From a virus, in IMG/VR virus record IMGVR_UViG_3300035670_012166, positions 69,915-120,181 of that record: a stretch of DNA of 50,267 nucleotides. One strand, 5' to 3'. The notes beneath the pieces are model-generated. The model was not told the DNA's origin, did not search any database, and saw nothing but the letters and a program-made list of their open reading frames with translations. The position numbers and the translations under genes were made by a program. Positions 35,133-38,810 of the stretch are shown here, one piece after another (positions within the stretch are counted from its first letter, which is position 1; every line of letters starts with the position of its first letter).

Positions 35133-35222
35133 ATGAAACAACAACGAAAACTAGTAGATCTAATCTTTGGACTCGTAGTAGTAATTGCAACAACGATTAT
35201 TCTAAAAGTAGCTTGCGATTAG
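35133..35222 (+). CDS. 29-aa single-TM peptide
   Basis: MKQQRKLVDLIFGLVVVIATTIILKVACD directly after a promoter. Confidence 0.45.
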   Translation: MKQQRKLVDLIFGLVVVIATTIILKVACD

Positions 35223-35251
35223 AATATTCTTTGGTATAATATAAATGATAG

Positions 35252-35534
35252 TCCTGGGTAACTTAATGGTAAAGTGCCAAGCTGTAGATTGATAGCAGCT
35301 TATTAAAGTAATTTAATATAGAAAATTGTCGAAATTCAGTGAAAGCTAAGTCGAAAGATATGCCAACACTGAGCCAAGCCTGAAAAAGGAAGGTGCAGAG
35401 ACTATAATGACAACATCCTACTAGGTATTGCTAAGGATGATGGTATAGTCCAGACTACAAACAGATTTATCTGGTAGTGAAAACTATAGTAGTAAGTAAC
35501 TTGGAGAGTGAAAGTTCGAGCCTTTCTCCAGGAG
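35252..35534 (+). tRNA. tRNA-Asn(GUU), intron-containing; exons 35252-35285 and 35497-35534
   Basis: Spliced cloverleaf: acceptor TCCTGGG/TCCAGGA, D stem ACTT/AAGT, anticodon stem CCAAG/CTTGG with loop CTGT|TAA, T arm GAAAG-TTCGAGC-CTTTC, G73; upstream TGGTATAAT. Confidence 0.9.
35286..35496 (+). ncRNA. Group I intron (211 nt, IC3-like, no ORF) at tRNA position 35/36
   Basis: P1 AAGCTGT/GCAGCTT with U-G at the splice site, P3 TTGTC/GACAA, CTGAGCCAAG, GGTGCAGAGACTA and TATAGTCC (P7), terminal G. Confidence 0.9.
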
Positions 35535-35538
35535 TCTA

Positions 35539-35566
35539 TAATCCCCATACAAAAGTATGGGGATTA
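35539..35566. terminator. Hairpin/terminator after tRNA-Asn
   Basis: TAATCCCCATAC-AAAA-GTATGGGGATTA. Confidence 0.65.
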
Positions 35567-35609
35567 ATTATTTGATATATATAAATCTTGATGGTATAGT
35601 AAAACATAT

Positions 35610-35681
35610 GGCCCGTTCGTCTAGTGGTCAGGATACGAGGTTTTCATCCTTGAGGCACGGTTTCGACTACCGTACGGGCTA
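35610..35681 (+). tRNA. tRNA-Glu(UUC)
   Basis: GGCCCGT/ACGGGCT acceptor, CGAGG-TTTTCAT-CCTTG anticodon arm, ACGGT-TTCGACT-ACCGT T arm; no encoded CCA. Confidence 0.9.
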
Positions 35682-35712
35682 TTTGTGGTATAATAAATTA
35701 GTTTGTAAATAT

Positions 35713-35783
35713 TCCCCGCTCGAATAATGGCAATTCAGCAGATTTTGGCTCTGTTTATCGAGGTTCAAATCCTTGGTGGGGAA
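35713..35783 (+). tRNA. tRNA-Gln(UUG)
   Basis: TCCCCGC/GTGGGGA acceptor, GAAT/ATTC D stem, GCAGA-TTTTGGC-TCTGT anticodon arm, CGAGG-TTCAAAT-CCTTG T arm. Confidence 0.9.
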
Positions 35784-35792
35784 CATTTGTTT

Positions 35793-36546: not shown

Positions 36547-36761
36547 TGTTTATTTACAGTATCAAATCAAAAAATGGCAGTGTTGGTGGATCAAATAAAA
36601 ATTATGATGAAGCTATGAAAGAAGCTTTATCATTAGTGAAGATTGTTTTTCCTAAAGCTGTTTTAAGTGAGAAACTTAATGATTTGGTTGCTTCTCCTGA
36701 TTATTTAGTATATGAGAATGGGGAAGATAAAATATTTTTAGAAGTTAAGGAAGAGAAATAA
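36546..36761 (+). CDS. Hypothetical protein
   Basis: TAATG coupling; followed by a bidirectional terminator at about 36760-36788. Confidence 0.6.
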   Translation: MFIYSIKSKNGSVGGSNKNYDEAMKEALSLVKIVFPKAVLSEKLNDLVASPDYLVYENGEDKIFLEVKEEK

Positions 36762-36787
36762 AAAAGGGGAGAATTTTCTCCCCTTTT

Positions 36788-37738
36788 TTATTCTTGATTT
36801 CTATAATGGTCTAATAAAAATTTCACGCTTTGTTCCATATTATATTTAGGCTGCCATTTTGTTTGTTCATAAAATTTAGAAATATCTGGAATTTGTAAAG
36901 TGACATCAACAGGTCTTAATAGGTTAGGATCTTGTTTTGAAATAATTTTGCATTTGGCTTGTCTTTTCAATTCTTCTAAAAAGTCACCAACAACCACTGG
37001 AATTGTTGAACCGATATTATATTCTTCACCAATTTTACATTTTGTTGCAGTGATCCAGTATGCTTCTACTATATCTCTAACATCAAGCAAAGTTCTTACA
37101 GATTCTAAATTGCCATGATAGAGAATATCTTTTTTACCTCTTTCAATATCTACAATTTGTTTTGCAAATGCGCTGGAAAATATATCTGGTCTTCTTGGGT
37201 TTATATATCCAAAAGCTCTAGTTACAATACAGGGAATTTCATAAGAGTGAAAATAAGATTTCACTAATTTTTCTTGTGTCAATTTACTAATTGCATAAAC
37301 ATTTATAGGATCAATTTTTTGTGATTCTTTAATAGGAATTTCTTCAGGTTTAACTTGCCCATAAATTTCAGATGTTCCACATAATTGAACAAGTGGTTTG
37401 ATATTTAATATTCTAATTGCTTCAAGAAGATTTAACGTGCTATTGATATTATTATTTAACACTGAAATTGGATTAGTGAAAGATAACTTGACATTAGCAT
37501 TTGCAGCTAAATGGAAAATATAATCAGGTTCAGAAAGTTGCAAAGCTCTAATTACAGAACCTAAATCAGTAAGATCACATTCAAAAATTTTTATTCTGTC
37601 ATAAAATTTTGATTTATTCTTCCTATCTGTGTGCCATCTTGATAATCCGTGAATTTCAATTTCTGGATTATTTTCAAAAAATTCAGCAAGATAAGTTGCA
37701 CCACTACCATGTATTCCTGTAATTAGAACTTTTTTCAT
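36788..37738 (-). CDS. NAD-dependent sugar-nucleotide dehydratase/reductase (GDP-mannose 4,6-dehydratase-like)
   Basis: KKVLITGIHGSGA, PDYIFHLAA, TSEIYG, YAISK, GNLESVR, LLRPVDV; likely start MKKVL. Confidence 0.88.
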   Translation of the reverse strand: MKKVLITGIHGSGATYLAEFFENNPEIEIHGLSRWHTDRKNKSKFYDRIKIFECDLTDLGSVIRALQLSEPDYIFHLAANANVKLSFTNPISVLNNNINSTLNLLEAIRILNIKPLVQLCGTSEIYGQVKPEEIPIKESQKIDPINVYAISKLTQEKLVKSYFHSYEIPCIVTRAFGYINPRRPDIFSSAFAKQIVDIERGKKDILYHGNLESVRTLLDVRDIVEAYWITATKCKIGEEYNIGSTIPVVVGDFLEELKRQAKCKIISKQDPNLLRPVDVTLQIPDISKFYEQTKWQPKYNMEQSVKFLLDHYRNQE

Positions 37739-38441: not shown

Positions 38442-38748
38442 GCCTCGTTAGCTCAGTGGAATTTAGAGCATCCGCCTTTTGGGGACCAGACAATAGAATG
38501 GTCAATTGGAGCTTTTATAGAGAATAAAAATCTATAAAATGGATGGTACTGTATCGGTGAAAGCTAAGTAGAAATATATGCTAATACCGAGGGAAGTTGA
38601 GAAGAAATTCTTTAACCCCGTAGAGACTATACGTACCACACCTGAAATGGTGAAGATATAGTCCAGACCACAAACTTAGAAATAAGGTAGTGAAAACTAT
38701 AGTGGTAAGCTAAGCGGAGGGTCAGTGGTTCGAGCCCACTACGAGGTA
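38442..38748 (+). tRNA. tRNA-Arg(UCU), intron-containing; exons 38442-38478 and 38710-38748
   Basis: GCCTCGT/ACGAGGT acceptor, GCTC/GAGC D stem with A after GG, TCCGC-CTT|CTAA-GCGGA anticodon arm, AGTGG-TTCGAGC-CCACT T arm. Confidence 0.85.
38479..38709 (+). ncRNA. Group I intron (231 nt, no ORF) at tRNA position 34/35
   Basis: P2 TTTTATAGA/TCTATAAAA, P3 TGGTAC/GTACCA, TCGGT/ACCGA, AGAGACTA and TATAGTCC (P7); 3' end GTAAG as in the Asn intron. Confidence 0.87.
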
Positions 38749-38810
38749 TTAAATCCCCTAAAGATTATTCTTTGGGGGATTATTCTTTTTTAAACCAGAA
38801 TAAATTAATT

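Follow-up and report, generated by a model that had tools for sequence, protein, structure and literature searches.

A compact group I intron divides the anticodon of a tRNA-Asn gene on a tailed phage contig

The DNA analyzed here, referred to as the window, is a stretch of 50,267 nt corresponding to bases 69915-120181 of a 120,181-bp IMG/VR record. At positions 35252-35534 it contains a tRNA-Asn(GUU) gene that is divided between U35 and U36 of the anticodon by a group I intron. Inspection of the sequence revealed a 211-nt insert (35286-35496) between two tRNA halves, and ARAGORN, run with introns enabled, returned tRNA-Asn(gtt) i(35,211) at genome positions 105166-105448, which equals window 35252-35534. 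The tRNA genes, the introns and the intron helices described here for the window all lie on the plus strand. The 5' exon (35252-35285) ends in CTGT and comprises the 5' strand of the acceptor, the D arm, the 5' strand of the anticodon stem and C32, U33, G34 and U35. The 3' exon (35497-35534) starts with TAAC and supplies U36, A37 and A38, the 3' strand of the anticodon stem, the variable loop, the T arm, the 3' strand of the acceptor and the discriminator G. When the exons were spliced in silico, ARAGORN recognized a 72-nt tRNA-Asn. All four stems are present, together with a D loop containing GG, a TTCGAGC T loop and G73 as discriminator, yielding a regular cloverleaf; CCA is absent from the encoded 3' end.

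The 35285/35497 junction is unambiguous, because the T preceding the intron differs from the last G of the intron and the first A of the intron differs from the first T of the 3' exon. A related phage contig (L072) carries an uninterrupted tRNA-Asn that matches the joined exons of another relative (L019) at 72 of 72 positions, and this natural intron-free allele establishes the junction without recourse to a model. An earlier, sequence-only reading of this DNA had proposed a 211-nt insertion dividing GU from U at exactly this junction, whose removal would restore a complete tRNA, and had named ARAGORN with introns as a check. The search gave the same boundaries, and the joined exons and the L072 allele bear out the restored tRNA. 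The same reading had cautioned that standard callers might overlook the gene, and indeed both default ARAGORN and the Rfam tRNA model (RF00005) missed the split tRNA-Asn, finding only tRNA-Glu and tRNA-Gln there. Likewise, a cmscan of the whole window (1-50267) did not detect the Asn intron at either the gathering or the E-value threshold. This miss is an effect of the speed filters and not absence of the intron, since the intron was found in both a search of about 500 bases and a genome search. The Infernal filters appear to drop compact, AT-rich introns (35% GC in this case) when more sequence is searched.

In the search of about 500 bases, positions 35276-35472 matched the full group I intron model RF00028 (model positions 1-253) with 81.7 bits (E 2.5e-21), the genome search giving the same score; the curated cut-off of this model is 50 bits. 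Helices P1-P9 were laid out by hand and each pair was checked. All 69 proposed pairs (63 nested and 6 of P7) are standard. P1 (35279-35301) is formed by seven standard pairs between the exon sequence AAGCUGU (35279-35285) and the guide GCAGCUU (35295-35301), and the 5' splice site lies at the U35285.G35295 wobble within this 7-bp helix. Directly 5' of the guide, GAUA (35291-35294) pairs at three of four positions with UAAC of the 3' exon and is a candidate for P10. GAUA is conserved in relatives while the remainder of the P1 loop is variable, which fits a P10 helix. P2 is a 5-bp hairpin (35303-35316) with a GUAA tetraloop (35308-35311). P3 (35326-35331 with 35408-35413) encloses P4-P5-P6 (35336-35394); within P5, the motif GCUAAG/UAUGC may correspond to an 11-nt receptor, which it resembles. 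P7, the guanosine-binding helix of group I introns, consists of six standard pairs between GACUAU (35400-35405) and AUAGUC (35445-35450) and crosses P3, and P8 (35415-35438) lies between the P7 strands. P9 (35454-35493) forms a three-way junction, in which the helix ACUAC/GUAGU carries two hairpins (35462-35473 and 35474-35487, the latter with a GAAA loop). It is followed by AAG, which ends in the terminal G35496, and this GTAAG motif is invariant across the family. Thus, the RF00028 search proposed by the sequence-only reading was clearly positive, and the P1 helix with its U-G splice-site wobble, the P3/P7 core and the terminal G that it described are all present, with standard pairs throughout.

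The Asn intron contains no ORF. Its longest stop-free stretch spans 34-48 codons on either strand, and no homing endonuclease gene is present. Judged by architecture, the compact size, the presence of P2, the lack of a P5abc extension, the P9 junction and the tetraloops on P2 and P9 would fit subgroup IC3. The sequence is best explained as a compact group I intron of the tRNA type, possibly of subgroup IC3.

To assess the proposed fold across the family, 95 non-redundant family introns were aligned with MAFFT. In the proposed structure 85.3% of the cells pair, compared with 33-43% when the partners were slid. Double changes numbered 835 (at most 284 with slid partners) and the covariation score was 0.341 (at most 0.105), and none of 500 shuffles reached values as high as those observed. 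Covariation was strong from P2 to P9. In P2 all five pairs are changed on both sides and 92.6% of the cells pair. The corresponding fractions are 91% for P3, 99.5% for P4, 100% for P5, 99.3% for P6 and 99.8% for the outer helix of P9, with double changes in 6/6 pairs of P3, 3/6 of P4 and 2/3 of P6. P7 pairs in 93% of the cells and shows double changes in three of its six pairs, including a swap from U-A to A-U in 39 sequences. The low pairing of P1 (57%) results from MAFFT not aligning P1 across tRNA types; the splice-site U.G is still kept in 92 of the 95 introns.

The sequence of the contig identifies it as that of a tailed phage, and the split tRNA-Asn as phage-encoded. Matches to PHROGs comprise the terminase large subunit (2.7e-30), the portal protein (3.4e-32) and the head maturation protease (5e-21). 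The contig further codes for a large subunit of RNR and a RecJ-like exonuclease, and the window for a tail-related protein and an exonuclease. CheckV estimated the completeness at 34%, so the genome is likely very large. A plus-strand promoter-like site at 35213-35240 (TTGCGA, 16 nt, TATAAT, with TG before the second hexamer as in an extended -10; 10/12 in a consensus scan) stops 12 nt upstream of tRNA-Asn, and its flank is identical to that of the related contig L060 at 121 of 122 positions. Downstream, the scan placed a putative plus-strand terminator at 35539-35576, a hairpin of 12 pairs (35539-35566) followed by a T-rich run; seven such terminator-like sites were found, compared with 1.2 expected. 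The hairpin after tRNA-Asn (35539-35566) and that after tRNA-Arg (38752-38781) have the stem AATCCCC...GGGGATT in common, as if one cassette end had been reused. Elsewhere in the window, a perfect hairpin of 16-17 bp at 36757-36792, with T runs on both sides and located between convergent genes, resembles a two-way terminator.

The split gene is followed by uninterrupted genes for tRNA-Glu(UUC) (35609-35682) and tRNA-Gln(UUG) (35713-35784), both found by ARAGORN and RF00005, and the order Asn-Glu-Gln recurs in relatives. The genome has a GC content of 31.8% and contains 66 Asn codons per 1000. The four tRNAs of the contig (Asn, Glu, Gln and Arg-UCU) read AAT/AAC, GAA, CAA and AGA, which are among its commonest codons. 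The frequency of Asn codons and the fit of the tRNA set to common A/T-rich codons make it most likely that the phage uses its tRNA-Asn.

The fourth of these tRNA genes is also split, so that two of the four tRNA genes on the contig contain introns. ARAGORN with introns enabled placed tRNA-Arg(UCU) at 38442-38748, in which a group I intron of 231 nt (38479-38709) separates U34 from C35, and the joined exons are called tRNA-Arg. On RF00028 this intron reaches 45.3 bits (E about 1e-10 to 2e-10), just below the cut-off of 50. Its P1 is short (CUU/U with GGAG), like that of the published Arg.3Ug seed. The Arg and Asn introns of the window phage are 53% identical and fall into separate site-specific groups, the Arg intron clustering with those found in tRNA-Arg genes of Lysinibacillus and of a further viral contig. 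The idea that the two introns are recent copies of each other was therefore rejected, and by sequence they represent separate lineages.

The 24-nt 3' tail of the Asn intron, GGTAGTGAAAACTATAGTRGTAAG, occurs exactly in at least 120 IMG/VR viral contigs and at least 120 bacterial genome contigs. Among the viral matches listed, the 3' exon types were Leu(UAA) in 78 of 121, UCA-reading in 12, CAU in 8, Asn in 6 and Arg(UCU) in 4. Among the bacterial matches listed, tRNA-Tyr(GUA) was commonest, followed by Leu(UAA), including cyanobacteria, and then Arg(UCU) in Lysinibacillus. The Asn form of the intron was present in 13 IMG/VR contigs besides that of the window, again among the matches listed. In about 85 of the 120 bacterial matches listed, the intron interrupts tRNA-Tyr(GUA) at 35/36 and has an extra hairpin in the P1 loop; almost all of these come from metagenome genomes of gut or rumen Clostridia. 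In the 12 UCA-reading viral matches listed (L007, L044, L045, L074, L081, L096, L104, L115 and others), the 3' exon is CAAAAC, and a UCA (UGA-reading) anticodon would be completed only by splicing. ARAGORN shifts the boundary in these genes and labels them SeC(tca) or Ala(cgc).

Seven syntenic relatives (L019, L060, L078, L099, L089, L072 and L052), with flanks 74-93% identical, show the order Asn-Glu-Gln-(Thr)...Arg. The introns vary among them: while the window phage contains both, L019 and L060 carry the Asn intron and lack the Arg intron, and L072 lacks the Asn intron and carries the Arg intron. Compared with eleven other contigs, the window intron is 92-96% identical, whereas the exons around these introns are 58-65% identical when gapped and 51-56% position by position. 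The comparison with L060 illustrates this pattern, with identity at 121/122 positions upstream, 18/34 in exon 1, 202/211 in the intron, 19/38 in exon 2 and 33/46 downstream; both exons together match at 37/72. At least four exon types contain the near-identical intron, and a fifth (L077) has an intron that is 74% identical. Copies that share the commonest exon type are 97-100% identical in their exons and 94-96% in their introns, hence the exons are not simply faster-evolving. Across exon types, the only identity adjoining the insertion site is GCTGT before it and TAAC after it.

The presence of near-identical introns in unlike exons requires horizontal exchange, either of the intron or of its surrounding exon pair. 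Endonuclease homing with co-conversion of the flanks fits poorly, given the short flank identity and the lack of an ORF. Judged from these alignments, the Asn intron appears to move independently of its exons and without an endonuclease gene of its own, and its spread may have occurred either by reverse splicing or by an earlier transfer followed by the exchange of complete cassettes. The exon set of the window had no exact match elsewhere in IMG/VR, where its 3' exon type had no other carriers. A search with the spliced anticodon arm yielded 38 unrelated intron-free tRNA-Asn genes, of which only that of L284 (IMGVR_UViG_3300026521_000038) shares the D and anticodon arms. In this intron-free tRNA-Asn the D arm, the anticodon arm and the start of the variable loop nearly match the window exons. 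Its acceptor and T arms differ from those of the window, which hints that phage tRNA bodies are mosaic.

In our reading, window 35252-35534 is very probably a transcription unit for a tRNA-Asn(GUU) precursor that contains a compact, ORF-less group I intron at U35/U36 as a selfish passenger. Self-splicing, expression and the route of spread we infer from the sequence, and the individual steps from established group I chemistry. The unit would extend from the promoter-like site (35213-35240) to the terminator-like hairpin (35539-35566) and produce pre-tRNA-Asn. In the precursor, P1 would arise by pairing of the guide GCAGCUU with exon bases 29-35, so that U35 sits in the U.G wobble, and a free guanosine held in P7 would attack after U35. 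The terminal G35496 would next occupy the guanosine site, and the 5' exon would attack after G35496, aided by a short P10 between UAAC and GAUA. Once the exons are joined to CUGUUAA, the anticodon stem could close and the mature 72-nt tRNA could fold; CCA would be added to it enzymatically. The intron itself would spread among phage tRNA-Asn genes on its own. Several points weigh against this reading. Many group I introns depend on protein help in vivo, the putative P10 pairs at only three of four positions, and the exon allele of the window lacks an exact match in IMG/VR. Moreover, as the contig is only 34% complete, an uninterrupted tRNA-Asn gene may lie elsewhere in the genome.

How the passenger spreads is less certain. 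It could do so at the RNA level, a tentative refinement of the reading above that does not oppose it: the excised intron would reverse-splice into tRNA-Asn transcripts containing GCUGU/UAAC, be copied into DNA and recombine, all free of any endonuclease. This route would account for an intron without an ORF that occurs with 92-96% identity in four or more exon backgrounds and for the intron-free alleles at the same locus; in addition, the shared GCTGT and TAAC are too short for ordinary homologous recombination and the flanks are not co-converted. However, swaps of pre-tRNA cassettes between co-infecting phages after a single earlier transfer would give the same pattern, and an endonuclease may act in trans. 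We consider it improbable that the intron instead serves the phage, for example by timing or gating the supply of tRNA-Asn or by keeping a precursor pool hidden from host nucleases that cut anticodon loops. Introns in two of the four tRNA genes on the contig would agree with such a role, as would the very common codons read by both split tRNAs and, in some comparisons, a higher conservation of the intron than of intergenic DNA nearby (96% compared with 70% upstream for L019). Nevertheless, close relatives lacking the Asn intron (L072) or the Arg intron (L019 and L060) fit a dispensable element, and once mature, the tRNA would be no better shielded than any other.

Loss of splicing, leaving a dead tRNA-Asn gene, is very unlikely. 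The unique exon allele of the window could be taken as a sign of decay, but all core helices are intact, the U.G pair and the terminal G are in place, the exons form a regular cloverleaf with discriminator G73, and the promoter-like and terminator-like sites are retained. Only 9 of 211 intron positions differ from relatives, and two of these changes keep their pairs, with A-U replaced by G-C in P5 and C-G by U-A in P6a. That the DNA is bacterial or an assembly chimera, as the frequency of the intron tail in bacterial genomes might suggest, is hardly credible in view of the terminase, portal and head protease on the contig and of the Asn-Glu-Gln...Arg layout, which is found again in other samples, with 74-93% identical flanks, on at least seven independent viral contigs.

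The sequence-only reading had stated that the classical bacterial tRNA introns occupy four sites and that classical phage group I introns reside in protein genes, and the literature (Williams 2020; Hausner et al. 2014) agrees with this. The four classical types of bacterial tRNA intron were raised to 21 by Williams 2020 (bioRxiv 10.1101/2020.01.27.920355), whose seed alignment includes Pam37.Asn.4Ug and Rba190.Arg.3Ug; thus both sites of the window phage have already been described for bacteria. The suspicion that the Asn 35/36 site might not be new was therefore well founded, Pam37.Asn.4Ug being inserted at the same site. Phages are unmentioned in that work (bioRxiv 10.1101/2020.01.27.920355). 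Hausner et al. 2014 (PMC3984707) wrote that, although phage tRNA genes are numerous, every phage group I intron then known was in a protein gene. Devoto et al. (bioRxiv 10.1101/356790) called the tRNA introns of Lak megaphages 'enigmatic', stated that phage tRNA introns were previously unreported and suggested that large phages may often carry such introns. Lui et al. 2021 (PMC8172020) noted the difficulty of detecting tRNAs interrupted by group I introns in their circularised metagenome genomes. In the open-access literature we found no description of group I introns in phage tRNA genes. The expectation that a phage-encoded tRNA intron would be unusual thus holds in print; it does not hold in the data, where the family is present in at least 120 IMG/VR contigs.

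The kind of element is consequently known, a tRNA-type group I intron at a site known in bacteria, now in a phage. It belongs to an intron family that is common in uncultured phages and undescribed for them in the open-access literature found, and the added value lies in the evidence for intron mobility independent of the exons. Missed split tRNAs lead to an undercount of phage tRNAs, with two of four genes affected on this contig and the family in at least 120 IMG/VR contigs. Because default tRNA callers missed the split gene, studies of codon adaptation or stop-codon recoding in phages that depend on tRNA calls can be misled. The statement of the 2014 review that the phage group I introns then known are confined to protein genes stands uncorrected in the open-access literature found, and a short survey would fill this gap. 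Near-identical introns in unlike exons, together with intron-free alleles, provide a handle on how ORF-less introns spread. It is possible, though on balance doubtful, that an ORF-less intron in this giant-phage clade moves between unlike tRNA-Asn genes by means of a 5-7-nt guide, most simply by reverse splicing. If true, the clade would be a natural system in which such spread becomes directly measurable, as alleles with and without the intron occupy the same locus. To our knowledge, reverse splicing has long been proposed as a route of intron spread and hardly documented in nature.

Among 50,697 phage records, blastn with the whole pre-tRNA gave no match covering at least 80%. Vibrio phage PWH3a-P1 and a Kolpuevirus gave partial matches, in each case to a group I intron that lies within or next to a protein gene. 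In PWH3a-P1 (HQ634156.1, about 54.8 kb; L001 599-812) the matched intron (RF00028, 76.4 bits) is unannotated and lies in a stretch without any annotated feature; it probably splits a protein gene, and its P1-P6 part is 72% identical to the window intron. In Kolpuevirus 'frurule' (OQ198718.1; L002 601-664), a crAss-like phage, a 63-nt match of 85% to the P7-P9 part lies between the genes for a GIY endonuclease and a replicative helicase, and likely represents an intron in or beside the helicase gene.

Of the known tRNA introns, the Asn.4Ug seed Pam37 occupies the same position as the window intron: both split a tRNA-Asn after the fourth base of the anticodon loop, between GU and U, with U at -1 and a terminal G, and the window intron shows all features that define Asn.4Ug (tRNA-Asn, loop position 4, U at -1, final G). 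By eye, however, the bacterial Pam37 has an extra helix after P7, another 3' end and no GGUAGUGAAAACUAUAG hairpin, so that the two look like different lineages or structural types. The tRNA-Leu(UAA) intron of cyanobacteria and plastids (Leu.3Ug; Xu et al. 1990, Kuhsel et al. 1990, as cited in PMC3984707) shares the compact architecture and the P9 three-way junction, and many Leu(UAA) introns, in cyanobacterial genomes as well as in viral contigs, contain the exact 24-nt tail of the window intron. It differs in residing in another tRNA, one base earlier (34/35), with a guide that pairs with CUU instead of GCUGU. The tRNA-Tyr(GUA) introns of gut Clostridia (Tyr.4Ug) have the GU/N site, the guide core GCAG and the 3' tail in common with the window intron, and the best-supported split of the tree leaves them together with the Asn introns, but they belong to another tRNA and a bacterial host and contain an extra hairpin in the P1 loop. 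As their raw identity to the window intron (58%) is no higher than that of the Leu introns (61%), a kinship of Asn and Tyr(GUA) introns is suggested only tentatively.

The Lak introns likewise lie inside phage tRNA genes and are highly conserved between genomes; they were mapped with eukaryote tRNA settings and carry no group I assignment, whereas the window intron is a clear group I ribozyme. The tRNA-Ile(CAU) intron of Azoarcus (IC3; PMC3984707, PMC13168695) is inserted after the anticodon (36/37) of a bacterial gene. Like the window intron, it comprises about 200 nt, lacks an ORF and has tetraloops on P2 and P9. By this likeness in architecture, the Azoarcus intron would be the best structural model for how the window intron works.
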